The position numbers and the translations under genes are program-made. A model generated the notes under the pieces. The model was not told where the DNA came from, made no database searches, and saw only the letters and a list, made by a program, of their open reading frames with translations. Shown piece after piece: positions 1 to 14,800 of a stretch of DNA of 24,725 nucleotides (within the stretch, counting starts at the first letter, position 1; every line of letters begins with the position of its first letter). This DNA comes from a virus: positions 1 to 24,725 of the IMG/VR virus record IMGVR_UViG_3300009285_003054; one strand, written 5' to 3'.

Positions 1-204
1 ATTCCTGACTTGATTCCTGACTTGATTCCTGACTTGATCCCCGACTTGATTCCTGACTTGATTCCTGACTTGATCCCAGACTTGATCCCAGACTTGATCC
101 ACGACTTGATCCCCGACTTGATCTCCGACTTGATTCCTGACTTGATCCCCGACTTGATCTCCGACTTGATTCCTGACTTGATTCCCGACTTGATCCCTGA
201 CTTG
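1..204 (-). repeat. Coding 12-bp tandem repeat, at least 17 units (minus strand CAAGTCxxx(A/G)AT)
   Basis: GACTTG recurs every 12 nt from position 1 to 204. Variation is limited to the third codon (R/G/W/V) and the first base of the fourth codon (N/D). Confidence 0.97.
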
Positions 205-420
205 AACCAAGTATACACTGCCTAAACAGCCGGCAAACGGACTGTTTAGGTGGATCCATATCGCTGGTGGCTCAACTCCCGCGCACCGATACGCGCGGGA
301 GATGGCATCTCGACATCGACTGTCGATTGGCTCTGTGGATAGGCCAATGTCCAACCATTTTTGCCTAAAAGTTGGAAGAAGTGCTTCTTGTTCGGGTGTC
401 AAATGTTCAATCTTGGACAT
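1..420 (-). CDS. DUF6745-like phage protein with QV(R/G/W)(N/D) tetrapeptide repeats; 3' end lies outside the window; absent from the ORF track
   Basis: My translation from ATG at 420 is MSKIEHLTPEQEALLPTFRQKWLDIGLSTEPIDSRCRDAISRAYRCAGVEPPAIWIHLNSPFAGCLGSVYLV followed by 17 QVxN/D units, open to position 1. The LTPEQ...KW..IGLSTEP...SP N-terminus plus QVWD repeats is typical of DUF6745-associated proteins. The start overlaps the upstream gene's stop by 14 nt. Confidence 0.85.
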   Translation of the reverse strand, partial: MSKIEHLTPEQEALLPTFRQKWLDIGLSTEPIDSRCRDAISRAYRCAGVEPPAIWIHLNSPFAGCLGSVYLVQVRDQVGNQVRNQVGDQVGDQVRNQVGDQVGDQVVDQVWDQVWDQVRNQVRNQVGDQVRNQVRNQVRN

Positions 421-1484: not shown

Positions 1485-1631
1485 CTAGCGTTTTCCAATG
1501 TATCCGGTTATAGTGCTTTGACCGCACACCTTCAGGGGTTCAATTCTACCAAAATGATCAAACACGGTTTGATCATCGAAAATCACAGGGTTCTTAACGA
1601 CATACCTCTCCAAAGACTCAAACCCCTTCAT
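1485..1631 (-). CDS. Small hypothetical protein (48 aa, MKGFESLERY...)
   Basis: Strong SD GGAGGAG (about 1641-1647) upstream of ATG at 1631, downstream of a sigma70-like promoter. Confidence 0.6.
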   Translation of the reverse strand: MKGFESLERYVVKNPVIFDDQTVFDHFGRIEPLKVCGQSTITGYIGKR

Positions 1632-1734
1632 TGTAGTAGCCTCCTCCGTTTTTTTGTTTCTGACCACTTGAGCCAACTTTACAGAAATCTCACTTTACTG
1701 AACCGTTAAGTGAATATCTGCAAAGTACAAATAT

Positions 1735-1763
1735 GGTATATCTACTTGCTGCTACAATGTCAA
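1735..1763 (-). promoter_or_regulatory. Sigma70-like promoter for the leftward operon
   Basis: TTGACA (1763-1758), 17-nt spacer, TATACC (1740-1735), with a T-rich UP-like tract upstream. The -10 element is imperfect. Confidence 0.6.
1750..1758 (+). promoter_or_regulatory. Extended -10 element, candidate promoter for the large ncRNA
   Basis: TGcTACAAT at 1750-1758 with no good -35. Predicted transcription start near 1765. Confidence 0.35.
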
Positions 1764-1789
1764 CAAAAAAAGAAAACATAGCAAAATCA

Positions 1790-3540
1790 GTATGCTTCCC
1801 GGTACACACCAACAAGTCACTAATGCAGATAAAGCATGATGGGAGCCATCAATTTAGCAACTCCCCCACCGAACCAAACTTGTGAAAGGAAAAATCGGGA
1901 ACACCAAACGTGGGGTGTATTGGGTACGTTTTCCACCCCTTGTTCCACCCTCGAAGGTCCTGGAGTTAGGATCCCCGGGTGGAGGAAAGCGACCGGGTGT
2001 TTATGCAACATCCGACCAGCGAGCCCTAATTGTAATTATGTTGCCGCCTTGGCCGCTAGCGTGATCATGTTGGGTGACAATGCCCCGTGGTGTTGGTCCT
2101 TCTGATTTGCGCCTAGCGCCGAAATAGCGTGTCGAAGCCTACACCGTGATGTCCACACACTCAACCCTCTTCTCCACCTCTCCACCGCAAGGTGCAACCG
2201 GTGATAACATAGGGATAACAAGGTGTGCATCTGGATATTATAAGACCCGGGAAGAATGCCACTGGCAACCCTGCTTAACTCGCTTTCGAGTTCTGGGAAG
2301 TCCTCTCGCTGACCCTGGGCCAGGCCGCAAGCCCCAGGTTGGACCGTAATCGGAACACCAATCTATGCGGGTGGCGATGCTGTTTTCTCCGTAATAGGGA
2401 AACGCTTTTAATTACGTCCCTCTAATTACGAAACGGGAGTTTTTAAGGTACCTTCGAGCCTATCTCCTGTTAGGACGGGATGGCCAGTCCGACCGGTCTC
2501 GCAATAAACAAAAACGTCTGACCCCCCTTCTCGTGAGGATCCGTGAGGTGTCATTCAATAGTAACCCGGTAGGTGCTCTGATGACAAAGAGCTTCTGGTA
2601 ATCCGGGATAAAAACTGGAAAGGTTCTCGATTCTGTATTCTGCGGGTAGCTACCCCGGAGAGGAGCGGAGACGGACATATGGTAATCCGGACCTGGTTGT
2701 CACTGGGCACCCGACAAAGTCTAGCTAGTCTCCCTTAGAAAAGATACCGGCTACGGTCTCGTCTCGGCTGGAACTAATAGTCAAAACCGCCAGCCTTGTC
2801 ACGTAAGCCTATGCGTGATGAACGTGGTATATGTTCACGGGTGGTAAGAGTAGGAGTAGGGCACTACGAGGTGCTAACTTGATGTTGTATAACAGCATCT
2901 GCAACCTCGGAAGTAGCAGGGACGCCATAGGAGGGATCCCCGCCCGGTTATCGTAGCAGGATACAGCACAACCGCCGTCGAGAACGAAGAATGGCTTAGC
3001 GAGAGCACATGGGGCAGGTACATAGTCCCTCGGGGATCCGTGAGTACCCCAGAAATTCTACTACAGGGAAAACGGAGAAAGAGCGTGACAAACCCGGCTT
3101 AGACACCGCCTGACTTGACAGCAGGCATATGAGATTCCGGTGCCTTTGATAAGGCGAATACGAGGTAGACTTGCTACCAGAATAACTCGAACTAGTTGAT
3201 GGGGTTCGTAACCTAATAGCAAGAGAACCTTCGGGAATCTTCCGGGGAGCATAACTTTCCTTGGCAGGACCCCTAATGGCTACAGCGTTTAGGAGTAGAC
3301 ACACGTAGCCATACCGATACAGCACTCTCTGCAACCAGCAAAGACGGGCAACCTTCACATTCTAGTAAGCAACCCACCCATACCCTTCTCTGATAATCCC
3401 CTTACTCTCTGGGATCCGAGGAGAAGCAAAAGAAGAGTGGACATCCTACTAAGAAGGATAACGTAAAACCGTTACAGAGTGCTTTCTAGGGATCCAGAAA
3501 GGAAAGGGATGGTAAGGGCGGGTTTTGTCTTCCCGGGGAT
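1790..3540 (+). ncRNA. Large structured non-coding RNA with an RNase P RNA (rnpB)-like core at about 1914-3107
   Basis: No convincing ORF over about 1.9 kb in an otherwise gene-dense region. Ordered RNase P-like elements: P2 1927-1943/3063-3074, P3 1944-1950/1977-1983, GAGGAAAG 1982-1989, P4 1987-1997/3093-3100, P5 1998-2001/2965-2968 followed by CAA, P7 2010-2013/2959-2962, and ACAAACCCGGCTTA 3088-3101. Many additional hairpins and long-range complementarities. Confidence 0.7.
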
Positions 3541-3620
3541 AATAGAGAATCTAATAGGGGATTGACTACTTGTTTAGTATCTTCTGGATCTCTGGTAGGT
3601 ATCGACACCATTTAGTCTAC

Positions 3621-4181
3621 TCAAAGGCTGGGGGTCAACCAGCCTTTGCATTTCAACGTGTTCACCGCAATTCCAATCTGGCGGGGGGTGAATTGTTTCT
3701 TGTGCTTCCACATGCACACACGGGTGACTATCTCATCCAGGCTGTCACATGGTTCGTGCTGTGTGATCCAATGTACAGTCACTAGAAGCTCTAGCCCAAA
3801 GGCCGACTCAAAACCTGATATCAGATCTGCCACACGTTCTACCCGGGCCATCGTTTCTGGATGCTGCTGCAGGATGGCTGTGGCATCCTCTATGGCACCG
3901 GGTATTAGATTGATGTGCCCGTCAGGTGCATGCCCTGCATAGCCAGAGACCATGTGGTATTCGATCATATGCATGGCATGCCACAAATTCTTCGTGTTGG
4001 GACCAAGCAATACCTTGTTGAACTTCAGGCGGAGCGGCTCACCAGCTATTTGAAGAAAGTATAGCAACTTGTATACTTCGAGCATGGTCACGAATGGGTC
4101 GAGTAGACCTCTCAGGTATGTGTCCATCAATTTCACCAAGGCAGCTCGTCCAGGCGTCATGGTGGGAACGGACGGTGCCAT
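3621..4181 (-). CDS. Stand-alone DarG antitoxin C-terminal (DarT-binding) domain with no macrodomain
   Basis: MTPGRAAL..LM..YL.GLLDPFVT.LEV.KL.YF.Q.AGEPLRL, GFES.FGLELL.TVHW and KQF.PRQI..A...L..KGWL match the C-terminal half of macrodomain-type DarG as I recall it. It has its own SD (CAGGAG) and ATG at 4181. No darT is present in the window. Confidence 0.8.
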   Translation of the reverse strand: MAPSVPTMTPGRAALVKLMDTYLRGLLDPFVTMLEVYKLLYFLQIAGEPLRLKFNKVLLGPNTKNLWHAMHMIEYHMVSGYAGHAPDGHINLIPGAIEDATAILQQHPETMARVERVADLISGFESAFGLELLVTVHWITQHEPCDSLDEIVTRVCMWKHKKQFTPRQIGIAVNTLKCKGWLTPSL

Positions 4182-4279
4182 GTAAGAGGCTCCTGTATGG
4201 GTTTTCCTGCTATTGTACTTCTACTACTATACTTCTATCTTTAGAGGATTGGCTTCGGGGGATAGGGATTGAGAAGGAT

Positions 4280-4319
4280 CCTGAAATGGATTGGGTGAGC
4301 CTGAAATGTATTTGGTGAG
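4280..4319. repeat. Intergenic 20-bp tandem duplication
   Basis: CCTGAAATGGATTGGGTGAG (4280-4299) and CCTGAAATGTATTTGGTGAG (4300-4319), 18/20 identical. Confidence 0.85.
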
Positions 4320-4364
4320 AATGTACCTGGCAAGATGGGAGTGGGTTAGGGGGCGACTGTCTGT

Positions 4365-5969
4365 CTACTTGTGGAATTTGAAGACCAAGTTGGCGACCGC
4401 GTCCCGGAGTGCGTCGCCTGCCTCTTTCCAACCTTCACTGTCCACGTACCAGCAGTTGTCGTCTTCACTGTCAAACAAGAAACCTGTGTTCTTCATGACC
4501 TTGCTGGTGAGCAGGGGGTTGAGCTCGGTAAGCTTCTTGCCACCATCAAGGCAGTAGAACACATCGGTGTCTACCTTCTTTTTGGTGTACCCCAGTACCA
4601 CCGGGGCATCCTCATCATCCCCGGAACCAGCACACTCATCCTCATCAGCATCCTCACACTCATCATCCCCGGAACCAGCACACTCATCCTCTTCCGCGTC
4701 ATCGTCATCCTCTTCGGTGGTGGGATCTTCCACCTTGGGTTGCTGCTTGCCAGCGCCCTTGGGCTTGCTGTCAGCCTTGGCTTCCGGAACGTCTACCATC
4801 TTGAGCTGCCCCCAACCAGCCGTCGCTAGCTGATTGTTGAGCTTTAACCAGGCGGTATCCCCGGTGGCTCCTTCGACCAACAGGCTGGTGGTATAGGCCA
4901 GCATCTCAGAAACTTTCCGGAATCCCCACTTGAGATCAGTGTTGATGTCTTTGAACGTCGCCGCCCCATCCTTGGCCCCGGCGTCAACCGCATCCTGCAT
5001 GAGCTTCTTCACTGCCTTGATGGCACTCTTCTGTGCCTTGCTCAGCTCAGCCACTGCCGGGGGGGCCGTCTCCTTCTTGGCCTTGGGCTCCGTCGGGTCC
5101 GGGGTGGTCTCTGCCTGGCCAGCCATGAGATTGACCAGCACTACCTCACACAGCAGTGCCGCGAGGTAGTAGTGCTTGTCCCGGAGCATACCGATGGTCT
5201 TGGACAACCCATCGGCGGTTGGGTTGATCAACCCTTTAAGCAGCAGGTACCCATCCTTCGGGGATCCCACACCCAGCCCCATGGTGGTGCACGCAGTCAT
5301 GATACCCTTCTTGTCCTTGTCCTTGCACAGCGCCTGGATGTGCTCCAGGGTGTAAGCGTCGGCGGGCACTTCGGGGAGCCCATTGGTGTCGGCGTCTTCC
5401 TCCAGCCCATCTTCAATGAGCTTGGCATCCTTAATGACAAAGCATATTTGTCCCACATCTGTTCCCTTCGGGATGACAATCCCTAGCCTCTTGGCCTCCT
5501 GCAGCATTTCCTTTATTTCAGTTGCTGTGGGCTTCTTGGCAGCTGTCTTACTCATGGTCCATTCTCCTTGCTGTTGTTGTGCTTGGCGTTCTGTTGTTGC
5601 ACCCTCGCCCTGGGCTTTACGCTCACCTGCACCTACCATTGTACCCGATTTGTTTCCGTTTGTCAAGCGATTTTTTTCAGCCGCAATGATTTTCTCGGCT
5701 TCCATCACGTCATCTGCTGGGAAGATACATGCATAAGCACACGTCCACTTTGATCCTACCTGACTACTTCTACCAGTACCTCTTTCCTCTACAGTTTCCA
5801 CTTTAACCGACTTACCATTGAATTTCAAGACCTTGGCCAATGTCCTTTCTCCATTGGGCATTCCGAAGAGAACTCGGTCATCTACCCGCACGTGCTGGGT
5901 TACACAGTGAAATGCATGTTCTGCTGCTTCATGTTGTACGGTTGCTTTGCAGAATGGACATTTGTACAT
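4365..5969 (-). CDS. Hypothetical multidomain protein: N-terminal CPFC...H..H zinc-finger-like motif, SH3/KOW-like beta domain, Lys/Ala-rich middle and acidic linker
   Basis: 534-aa ORF with SD AAGGAG at 5976-5981 and a consensus-like promoter upstream. A second AAGGAG plus in-frame ATG occurs at 5555. Confidence 0.85.
   Translation of the reverse strand: MYKCPFCKATVQHEAAEHAFHCVTQHVRVDDRVLFGMPNGERTLAKVLKFNGKSVKVETVEERGTGRSSQVGSKWTCAYACIFPADDVMEAEKIIAAEKNRLTNGNKSGTMVGAGERKAQGEGATTERQAQQQQGEWTMSKTAAKKPTATEIKEMLQEAKRLGIVIPKGTDVGQICFVIKDAKLIEDGLEEDADTNGLPEVPADAYTLEHIQALCKDKDKKGIMTACTTMGLGVGSPKDGYLLLKGLINPTADGLSKTIGMLRDKHYYLAALLCEVVLVNLMAGQAETTPDPTEPKAKKETAPPAVAELSKAQKSAIKAVKKLMQDAVDAGAKDGAATFKDINTDLKWGFRKVSEMLAYTTSLLVEGATGDTAWLKLNNQLATAGWGQLKMVDVPEAKADSKPKGAGKQQPKVEDPTTEEDDDDAEEDECAGSGDDECEDADEDECAGSGDDEDAPVVLGYTKKKVDTDVFYCLDGGKKLTELNPLLTSKVMKNTGFLFDSEDDNCWYVDSEGWKEAGDALRDAVANLVFKFHK
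4611..4691 (-). repeat. 33-bp direct repeat with 48-bp period, encoding EDECAGSGDDE twice
   Basis: CTCATCATCCCCGGAACCAGCACACTCATCCTC at 4611-4643 and 4659-4691. Confidence 0.9.
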
Positions 5970-11666: not shown

Positions 11667-13070
11667 CTACTCAATATCCTTGGTGAACTCTTTGTATTGT
11701 TCAAATGCCCACCCTGTGGCCATCTGTTGTCTGCAAATGTTGTGCAGGTCTATTAGATATGTTCCGGGGTCATGTGCCTCTTCGTAAACTAGTCTTCGGA
11801 ATTCCACCCATGACATGCTCACTCCGTAGAATTTCTTGGCCTTTTTGTAGACTATTTCTTTTGTATCCCCCACAACAGTCGGAACCTGAACATTAAGGGT
11901 AACCCTTTCTCGACCAACCCATTCTGCCTGTCCAGTCATGCAGAGGAATTGAAACACATCATACGCTCGATCCACCCCCGAGCCACCACCACCGCTCTCT
12001 TTGAAGCAGATTCGACTCCATGTCTGGTCAGTGGCTGATCCTCGTCTTCGATTTTTCTTGAATGCGTGAGCAGCGTATACAAAAAAATCCTTCCCACTGA
12101 GACGCCAAGACTGCTCTATCCGCCTCCCTTTGGCTTTTACTGCCGGTTGTGGCATGCCTGATGAACGCGCAGACATCCATTCGATGGTATCCGAGTGGTG
12201 ATGGAGTGCCGATCCCCCCGTCATGTACTCTGGAGATCCAAAGACCACCCCGGGTTTTACTTTGATATGGTTGGTGAAGAAAAGCACACCACCCTTCCGT
12301 TTAAGCAGTGATCTTACTACATGAAACCCGGTACCAAACATCCGGGCTTGAGCAGCCATCGGGTTGCTGTCGGGGTTATCAGCTAATGATTTAGGGGTAA
12401 GATTGGCTGCGCTATCACAGAAAAACGCAACCTGTGGTGGGCCGGATGTATAATCCGGTAAGGTTTTCAGTACCCATGCCATGAAGCGGAACCAGTCGTC
12501 ACCCGATGGAAAATCCACAAGTTTCAAACAGGGATGGGTCCAGGATTGATTTCTCGCGTCCCATTCCAGTTCTACACCCCACTTTCGGATAGCTACTGCG
12601 CCATATGTCCAGTCTATGGCTGTCTCTGCGTCGAAAACATAGGTTACGATCCTCCTAGCAAGACAGTCACCCATAGACTCAAAGTAATCGGTTGTCTTCC
12701 CTGCGTGGGGATGCCCCGCTTTTGTATGCACCTTCCCTGGTGGGATCCCACCCCCCAGTGCTAAATCAGCCACTAAACATCCGGATGTGACGCATACGGA
12801 TGCGGTCGATACCGTGGCGTCTTCCCGCCTGCCACTGGTTTTGTCCAGAATAGTTAATAGGGTTTTATCCGGTGTCTGCACCTCAGTCGGGGTGTACTGA
12901 TCACATGCGGGTGTCGAGTTGGCTACCCCCCTCATCAATCGACACCCTAACCGTGGGTTACCTAGCTCAAAACATGGTGCGTCAATCCATTTACAGTAAA
13001 TGCAACTTTTTTTCGACTTGTGGGGTTTTCTACCATGGGGAAGGGGGCCTGGCTGATGTGGCTTTAACAT
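11667..13070 (-). CDS. recA: RecA/UvsX-like recombinase with a Cys-rich N-terminal extension
   Basis: SG...DLALGGGIP.G, Walker A GHPHAGKTT, FDAE.AID, Walker B FFCDS, AAQARM and FTNH....GVVFGSPE..TGG.AL. Start placed at ATG 13070, which overlaps the upstream stop; the ORF track extends to 13160. Confidence 0.9.
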   Translation of the reverse strand: MLKPHQPGPLPHGRKPHKSKKSCIYCKWIDAPCFELGNPRLGCRLMRGVANSTPACDQYTPTEVQTPDKTLLTILDKTSGRREDATVSTASVCVTSGCLVADLALGGGIPPGKVHTKAGHPHAGKTTDYFESMGDCLARRIVTYVFDAETAIDWTYGAVAIRKWGVELEWDARNQSWTHPCLKLVDFPSGDDWFRFMAWVLKTLPDYTSGPPQVAFFCDSAANLTPKSLADNPDSNPMAAQARMFGTGFHVVRSLLKRKGGVLFFTNHIKVKPGVVFGSPEYMTGGSALHHHSDTIEWMSARSSGMPQPAVKAKGRRIEQSWRLSGKDFFVYAAHAFKKNRRRGSATDQTWSRICFKESGGGGSGVDRAYDVFQFLCMTGQAEWVGRERVTLNVQVPTVVGDTKEIVYKKAKKFYGVSMSWVEFRRLVYEEAHDPGTYLIDLHNICRQQMATGWAFEQYKEFTKDIE

Positions 13071-14800
13071 TGTTCTACTCGCTTTCGACATACTGCGCAG
13101 AACAGATACCTTCCCGTTCCACACAGACCGTAAATGGTTGCCGAACCACATTGGGGACACTGGTGCCCGGATGGGGCACTGTGAAATGACGTCAATTCAC
13201 CATCTGCTGTAAAATCAATCCCGGAAATAGACATACACCCGGGCTCTGGGCACTGCAGTACCGGAGTAGGTTTGTATATCAGTCGCATGGGAACCCTCAT
13301 GTGTACTCGAAGATTGTCACATGTGGGTACTTCGGATCCGAAGACCTGATTAATACTGCACCATTCCGTGGTTACTGCAGTCGTCATGCAGTTGCGCCAA
13401 AACAGTCGAAGCACCTTTTCCGGAGAGGTCTTTCCTTCGGCTACGCCATGCAGCATGGCTTCTATTTTGGGTATCATACGTGGGGATGCAGCCGAAGAGA
13501 AGACTCTATTGAGTACCCGCCCTACCAATTCCCCTGTCTGTGATAACCGAAGGGATGAGTCTTCGGTAGTGATGAATCCCGCATCAATTGCCCGTTGCAG
13601 ATTTCGGACAAAGTGCCCGATGTCATTTACTCCAATATCTCTAAGAGTCTTGAGTAGGCTACCTACAGTGTAGGGTGTCTTTTGTGGATCGTGAATCTCT
13701 ACATGTGAGGCGGTAACCAGAGTTTTCTCTGCATCCAACAAATATTGATGCATCTCATCCCAAGAACCCCCACTCTTCGATGTATGTGTCAAAAGTATTT
13801 GTTTCCGATGAATAGAGTGACACCACCGAATTCGTTGACTACTATATGTAGGGTTGGACGACTCCCCCCAACAACGGATGGCTAATTTGCCTACATTCCC
13901 TCTACTCACTTTTCGGATGGCTTCCGGTGCCATTCGCACACAGAGATCCCCATCTCCCTCCGGAAATTCAATGTGCCCCTGTAGATATATGTCTAGCATC
14001 TCCGCATAGGCTGACCCTGGGGAACTATTGCTATGTACCTCTCGCATTACATTGATCATCGAGAATGGGGATTTTTCCCGCATGACAGTTGGCTCATCAT
14101 CTATTGAGACCCGATATTTATTGGTCTCTAGTAGGTGAGCCACCATCTTCGCTCTAATCCGGGTCATCTGCCCAGAGTAGATTGTTTCCCCGGACTCTAG
14201 TGTCACACCCACTCGCCATACCTTTGCCTCGGGGTCTTTACATGTACTCCTAATGTGCTGTTCTTTTTCTGCGAGGATCTGGAGAATCACTCCAATAGTT
14301 CGATTTATGGGGAGATCTTCTGGAGCATGCATGATCTCATGGAGTACAGCTCGACCCTTAACTGCGATCATGCGATCCATAGCTACTCTTACCCAATATG
14401 CCTGTGCCACGGGGAGATCTACTTGTTTGGCGGATGCTATCGCCTTATGCAATCCCCTAACGGTCAAACGCATCAGGCGCACCCGCTTAGCTAGGGGCAA
14501 AGTTTCCTGCATAATAGATGCAAAAAACTCTCCTCGTGGGGTAGGTTCAGTAGCCAAATATACCCGATACTCGCTCATCTTCTGGAGCTGGCGTACTAGC
14601 TCGTGGTCAACTTCCCAGCGGGGGCGCATGGTCTTGATACAGATACCCAACTCGGGATAATCTGGCCAGGCCACTATGTTCGGATCGATGTGAGTTACTC
14701 TCCAGTGTGGAAGTAGTCTGCGGACAACACGGGCGACCCTTTCATCGTCTGTTACAAGAATTTTTTGGCCATGACGACTGTGCTTTGTCTGCTTGGGCAT
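13064..14800 (-). CDS. topA: Degenerate type IA DNA topoisomerase-like protein lacking catalytic residues, with C-terminal zinc ribbons
   Basis: Collinear remnants of TopA motifs: YLATEPTPRGE (vs LATDPDREGE), DRMI, NRT (vs GRVQ), PF, YLQGHIEFPEGD (vs YE.G.ITYPRTD), EAIR, PYT.GSL, TG.LV and E..L..VAEG, plus C-terminal CPEPGC, CPQC and CAVC. Confidence 0.8.
   Translation of the reverse strand: MPKQTKHSRHGQKILVTDDERVARVVRRLLPHWRVTHIDPNIVAWPDYPELGICIKTMRPRWEVDHELVRQLQKMSEYRVYLATEPTPRGEFFASIMQETLPLAKRVRLMRLTVRGLHKAIASAKQVDLPVAQAYWVRVAMDRMIAVKGRAVLHEIMHAPEDLPINRTIGVILQILAEKEQHIRSTCKDPEAKVWRVGVTLESGETIYSGQMTRIRAKMVAHLLETNKYRVSIDDEPTVMREKSPFSMINVMREVHSNSSPGSAYAEMLDIYLQGHIEFPEGDGDLCVRMAPEAIRKVSRGNVGKLAIRCWGESSNPTYSSQRIRWCHSIHRKQILLTHTSKSGGSWDEMHQYLLDAEKTLVTASHVEIHDPQKTPYTVGSLLKTLRDIGVNDIGHFVRNLQRAIDAGFITTEDSSLRLSQTGELVGRVLNRVFSSAASPRMIPKIEAMLHGVAEGKTSPEKVLRLFWRNCMTTAVTTEWCSINQVFGSEVPTCDNLRVHMRVPMRLIYKPTPVLQCPEPGCMSISGIDFTADGELTSFHSAPSGHQCPQCGSATIYGLCGTGRYLFCAVCRKRVEQC

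Follow-up and report, generated by a model that had tools for sequence, protein, structure and literature searches.

We describe a phage gene that encodes a stand-alone copy of the C-terminal, toxin-binding domain of the antitoxin DarG2. The gene lies in a window of 24,725 nucleotides at the start of the 176,803-nt virus record IMGVR_UViG_3300009285_003054. By descent, its 186-residue product is the C-terminal domain of a DarG2; it is not itself a DarG2 antitoxin, as macrodomain and darT are both absent. We put the probability that it is a stoichiometric, horizontally acquired anti-DarT2 factor of the phage at about one half (roughly 0.5), and treat it only as a candidate anti-DarT factor (Adf). 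The gene and its start signal are as follows:

3621..4181, minus strand: gene for a 186-aa stand-alone C-terminal (toxin-binding) domain of DarG2 (ORF, profile and structure matches)
4190..4194, minus strand: Shine-Dalgarno-like AGGAG, 8 nt 5' of the ATG (sequence)

The initial annotation described an intact 186-aa gene with its own Shine-Dalgarno sequence that covers the C-terminal half of DarG, and the description holds. The reading frame runs from an ATG start with no internal stop, and the AGGAG is a motif found in the same pre-start zone of 22 of the 123 other long ORFs in the genome. Positions 157-327 of the 329-position PADLOC DarG profile match residues 4-178 of the protein (E 6.9e-40); the start falls inside what is, in a full DarG, the linker between macrodomain and C-terminal domain. 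The toxin-binding domain of Mycobacterium tuberculosis DarG (7YK3_B) is matched in sequence with an E value of 1e-10, and the predicted model of the phage protein matches 7YK3 with a TM of 0.74 and aligns with it over 166 residues in VIA-align (Z 16.3, rmsd 2.5), the next match in the structure search reaching only Z 6.3. Homology to the DarG2 C-terminal domain thus spans the whole domain in both sequence and fold. Its closest relatives are DarG2 domains of environmental bacteria, at 57-61% identity, with nothing nearer found; searches of Pfam, PHROGs and BFVD gave no match for the phage protein. The sequence, including the altered motifs LGPN and EYH, is the same across four groundwater runs of one study. 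An assembly error was considered and rejected, since three other assemblies and the four-run contigs are identical (all are from one study, which is possibly the source of the record). No RNA is among the listed holders of the gene sequence.

The phage genome can be regarded as closed because two other assemblies join the two ends of the record, via a short tandem repeat. For the same reason we rejected the suggestion that the genome is incomplete (CheckV 57%). The junction (genome end 176803 and window positions 1-225) lies in an array of 12-nt tandem repeats inside a minus-strand gene encoding QVRN/QVGD repeats. Two other features of the genome were noted. Some six-base-pair palindromes are strongly avoided throughout, with ACGCGT absent and CGTACG, CCTAGG, GACGTC and TTCGAA at 0.1-0.2 of expectation, which suggests host restriction targets and may help in finding the host. 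Pfam matches only part of a topoisomerase IA-like gene at window positions 13064-14800, and only weakly, with 24 bits where the cut-off is 35; the gene may be divergent or inactive.

Both features that would mark a full DarG2, a macrodomain hydrolase at the N-terminus and darT directly upstream, are absent. The claim that neither lies nearby can in fact be extended to the closed genome: the 176,803-nt record has no match to Macro, DarT, NADAR or Panacea, and no DarT-like sequence was detected by Pfam, tblastn or a 53-sequence profile. The gene is therefore phage-encoded in the absence of its cognate toxin. A nucleotide HMM built from 75 full darG genes aligned to positions 4170-3630 only (envelope to 4191). 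The spacer upstream of the gene was examined for traces of a lost macrodomain:

4182..4364, minus strand: spacer of 183 nt to the upstream 534-aa ORFan, without macrodomain remnant (HMM, tblastn)

Neither tblastn nor the nucleotide HMM nor a six-frame protein HMM found a remnant here, so the sign of recent truncation that the initial annotation proposed to look for at 4182-4360 is missing. The residues T-G-A-S-Y-M, in frame 5' of the start, loosely resemble the linker K-G-A-P-x-x-x-M, a likeness that is below detection and may be due to chance. The spacer also contains a weak sigma70-like site (TTGCCA-17-TACATT, at 4333-4305), one of 3 such sites found against 1.1 +/- 0.9 expected, which is not clearly above chance.

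Replication and recombination genes form a block, at the end of which the gene sits. The upstream 534-aa ORFan (window 4365-5969) has a zinc motif resembling CxxC...HxxxC at its N-terminus and, close to its C-terminus, an acidic repeat; it yielded no homologue among 8000 scored candidates. Directly downstream lies a stretch of approximately 1.9 kb without a credible gene (window 1700-3620); Rfam gave no match across 1500-4400 (E <= 1 for the 1700-3620 stretch). These surroundings bear on the idea that the protein is the antitoxin of a cryptic toxin encoded elsewhere in the phage genome. Most genes of this phage belong to no known family, which would leave room for such a toxin; against this, Pfam, tblastn and the profile detected no DarT-like sequence in the closed genome, and the neighbours are an ORFan and a gene-free stretch, with no toxin gene adjoining. 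We consider this explanation very improbable.

As a stand-alone viral gene, this copy is the only example that we found, and it is known from one phage lineage only. All 40 other viral loci found by family alignment have the macrodomain fused in frame, and darT is present in nearly all of them. No stand-alone C-terminal domain turned up in these 40 loci, in cultured phages or in BFVD, and pattern searching favours consensus-like sequences. The sole cultured phage that matched, Thermus phage phiMa (MH673674), encodes a full-length darG in a complete darT-darG pair (L129:1838-3594). Sister phages carrying the gene or two neighbours were not found.

In bacteria, stand-alone copies exist. Of 80 genome loci, 77 carry a fused macrodomain and 3 lack it, and none of 80 metagenome loci is clearly stand-alone. 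Several bacterial stand-alone genes lie directly 3' of hsdS of a type I restriction-modification (RM) system, in the slot between hsdS and hsdR, with their motifs intact (L001:3001-3618, L057:2968-3606, L213:3001-3582, L102:2962-3570, L211:3001-3609 and L003:3001-3585); they often overlap the hsdS stop codon and lack both darT and macrodomain. At L102 the preceding gene (142-2965) encodes a NADAR domain fused to HsdS (732 aa), with a PRTase-CE gene before it and the stand-alone DarG C-terminal gene after it. In the RRDM island of EPEC, the hsdS slot is occupied by a full darTG2 (PMC12255303). The stand-alone genes in this slot fall on at least three tree branches and could represent recurrent darTG2 deletions or a retained module. 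Other bacterial C-terminal pieces derive from darTG loci broken by an IS insertion (L210) or by a deletion (L214). Because stand-alone copies exist in bacteria, the truncation may have taken place before the gene reached the phage. The proposal that the phage captured only the toxin-binding module is supported with respect to the orphan state, while capture of this module alone becomes one of two routes. The survey that the initial annotation called for has recovered bacterial copies but no further phage-borne ones.

The sequence of the phage copy is strongly altered. Of the 84 columns that are at least 90% conserved in the family, the protein differs at 18, whereas the 89 fused homologues have at most 6 changes (median 1) and the bacterial stand-alone copies counted have 0-3; at variable columns the phage protein is ordinary relative to its relatives. 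The substitutions LGPN for YGPY and EYH for EGH, already listed in the initial annotation, are real, yet the list understated the number of changes. In a quick tree, the protein forms a long branch in an open fork that points to no particular donor lineage, and its end branch (1.18, against a median of 0.24) is the longest in the clade. The changes are concentrated in one segment, and a second site has lost a codon:

3903..4013, minus strand: heavily changed segment, residues 57-93 (YGPY strand, helix and wing; alignment and models)
3705..3710, minus strand: in-frame one-codon deletion after W158 (consensus N; alignment)

Residues 57-93 account for changes at 12 of 24 conserved columns, compared with 6 of 60 outside (best-window p 0.002-0.006). 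Within the segment, YGPY has become LGPN, RHVL has become WHAM and EGH has become EYH (G75Y), with D84H and K88G in addition; two codons (DG) are lost from the DGGD loop with the frame kept, so that both deletions in the gene preserve the reading frame. The family motifs YGPY, EGH and GYxDG are not retained, G60-P61 of the GP strand being kept. Radical changes include G75Y (at an invariant glycine), Y62N, R67W and Y156C, and one-base steps explain 10 of the 16 substitutions at conserved columns; methionine and cysteine have been gained. The small beta-sheet of residues 57-93 is not predicted in the phage protein (pLDDT about 50), in which the helical core is confident, whereas a wild-type control run with the same alignment gives a confident three-strand sheet here (pLDDT 78-94). 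This loss in the model may mean that the protein is unstable. With 17 acidic residues the protein falls below all 119 homologues (minimum 18), and its net charge is -1 against a homologue median of -4, a deficit that could weaken mimicry of ssDNA; the acidic DGGD loop borders the predicted interface at residues 87 and 89.

These features raise the possibility that the gene is a piece of darTG, or a gene already standing alone in an hsdS-hsdR slot, that was perhaps once useful but for which selection has relaxed or ended, leaving it on the way to loss. The long end branch, a number of conserved-site changes three times the maximum among homologues, the many one-base radical changes and the gained methionine and cysteine all favour this explanation, as do the fact that C-terminal pieces left by broken darTG loci are common in bacteria and the failure to find a second phage carrier. 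The lack of depletion of DarT2 target words in the phage genome is uninformative, or at most a weak point in the same direction. What does not fit is the distribution of the changes, including their absence from the conserved residues of the surface predicted to face DarT. In a co-folding model, this surface comprises residues 20, 23-30, 87, 89, 122-132 and 165-175, with three main patches:

4092..4115, minus strand: predicted DarT contact, residues 23-30 (LRGLLDPF), conserved residues kept (co-fold)
3786..3818, minus strand: predicted core DarT contact, residues 122-132 (SGFESAFGLEL; co-fold)
3657..3689, minus strand: predicted DarT contact, residues 165-175 (TPRQIGIAVNT), with R167, Q168 and A172 kept (co-fold)

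Co-folding of the phage protein with a DarT2 from a related locus, the modelling suggested by the initial annotation, gave an ipSAE of 0.75 compared with 0.00 for the best control. This mark is reached by 58 of 80 solved pairs and by 2 of 110 mismatched ones; runs share at least 85% of contacts, and the pLDDT of the partner is at least 78. Because a like complex (7YK3) had already been solved and the model was given an alignment of wild-type relatives, the result indicates likeness to a DarG-DarT pair only, and not binding by this particular copy. Within the core contact the invariant residues G123, F124, G129 and L132 are retained, and the less conserved positions E122S and P127A, at the edge of the interface, are changed.

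None of 12 conserved residues in the predicted interface is changed, against 18 of the other 72 (one-sided Fisher p 0.044); the contacts were read from a model of the protein with its changes in place, and any contact that these changes removed would be missing from the list. At an 80% conservation threshold the figures are 0 of 14 and 24 of 86 (p 0.016), and at a 60% threshold the result is weaker (p 0.13). Distant DarG2 homologues retain 58% of the interface residues and 70% of those in 57-93; the phage protein shows the opposite trend, with 100% of the former and 50% of the latter kept.

Four-fold degenerate sites are saturated with respect to the nearest homologues (21-39% identity). Because synonymous sites are saturated against all relatives, we relied on column conservation and on simulation under a null model, in which real homologous genes were mutated at random, at uniform rates, until 16 conserved columns had changed. 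The open frame survived in 0.22-0.24 of the neutral runs, which is a further point for a decaying gene; as the frame persists neutrally in 24% of runs, an intact ORF alone says little. The changes at conserved columns have a mean BLOSUM score of +0.44, compared with a neutral median of -0.53 and a 95th percentile of about +0.15, and changes this conservative have a neutral probability of 0.012. An untouched interface has a neutral probability of 0.08. The joint probability of no stop, an untouched interface and conservative changes is approximately 0.0006 under neutrality, for criteria that were chosen post hoc.

The simulation argues against simple neutral decay, and a period of selection followed by relaxation still fits. 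Codon use is between that of the donor-like homologues and that of the phage, suggesting that the gene is not a recent arrival. Decay, which the initial annotation had allowed for, is still a serious rival, but the clustering of the changes, the sparing of the predicted interface, the conservative character of the changes in the helical core and the two in-frame deletions are unlike uniform neutral decay. We regard a gene already heading to loss as the main rival, possible though less likely than not; it would then be ordinary darTG debris.

The same segment could also have been reshaped for a new partner. On this explanation, the changed GP strand and adjacent helix would direct the protein at a different toxin or other partner, a kind of switch seen in the related Panacea (DUF4065) antitoxins. 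DUF4065 proteins have been reported to be homologous to the DarG C-terminal domain (PMC13621843), and Panacea proteins gain cross-neutralisation through two substitutions beside the GPV strand (PMC8832971); the changes in the phage protein centre on the equivalent strand, in which G60-P61 itself persists. Neither the phage protein nor any of its 70 relatives has a Pfam Panacea match, however, no toxin gene is adjacent, and the conserved residues of the predicted DarT-facing patches are all kept, which a switch of partner would not require. A change of target is thus improbable.

Under the reading that we prefer, an anti-DarT2 factor, the phage would have acquired the DarG2 toxin-binding domain horizontally and would retain the gene against a DarT2 of its host. 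During infection, DarT2 freed from the host DarG would modify thymidines of the phage ssDNA by ADP-ribosylation, and the phage protein would bind DarT2 1:1 at its DNA-binding cleft, through patches 23-30, 122-132 and 165-175, and would block it with no involvement of enzymatic repair. The second surface (residues 57-93; GP strand, helix and wing), released from the constraint that acts in cellular DarG, may have drifted or been reshaped. This scheme takes domain identity, orphan state and change pattern from the phage sequence and sufficiency from the EPEC literature, and presupposes expression, binding and protection. [quoted passage not shown]

A more specific version, which we think unlikely, is that the domain is a working DarT2 inhibitor that has kept its grip on the toxin and lost the surface by which DarG in cells is controlled or, in infection, turned off. 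If so, the altered residues 57-93 would point to the switch that releases DarT. The gene can in addition be viewed as a natural mutant in which two conserved surfaces of the domain come apart: the one modelled to hold DarT, and the YGPY strand, helix and wing, which is conserved family-wide.

Among known systems, the closest counterparts are the DarG2 C-terminal domains of M. tuberculosis (7YK3) and EPEC (PMC7003065), which share sequence family and fold with the phage copy and, as is predicted for it, sit on DarT; it differs from cellular DarG2 in the missing macrodomain and darT and in its altered YGPY, EGH and DGGD motifs. The bacterial hsdS-linked genes (L001, L057, L102, L211 and L213) have the same C-terminal-only architecture, with a start in the linker and no darT or macrodomain within 3 kb, but they are cellular and keep YGPY and EGH. 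Panacea/SocA proteins (DUF4065, PF13274; PMC8832971), with a reported distant homology and a GP motif on a small sheet, differ in having a PF13274 match and a paired toxin.

A non-enzymatic stoichiometric inhibitor of DarT, as proposed in the initial annotation, is plausible in mechanism, given the rescue by the EPEC domain and the conserved residues kept in the predicted interface. The strategy is not new, since AdfB (Gp145) of vibriophage ICP1 already binds DarT and in modelling resembles the C-terminus of DarG (PMC11481870). AdfB and AdfA of RB69 (PMC11825919) are likewise phage-encoded and non-enzymatic, with a direct block of DarT proposed. AdfB is a mimic of 77 aa with <15% similarity to DarG and AdfA has no known homologue, in contrast to the 186-aa protein, a true descendant of DarG; we found no report in the literature of a phage-borne true DarG C-terminal domain. 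AdfN (NADAR; PMC11825919) and AdfM (macrodomain; PMC13309987), which act against DarTG, are orphan antitoxin domains in phages, as is the present gene product. They are enzymatic halves, however: they remove ADP-ribose and occur widely across phage families, whereas the present protein is the binding half and comes from one phage. Phages are thus known to carry enzymatic half-antitoxins or unrelated small binders, and the 186-aa gene, if functional, would complete this set of anti-DarTG strategies with a binding half taken directly from DarG2.
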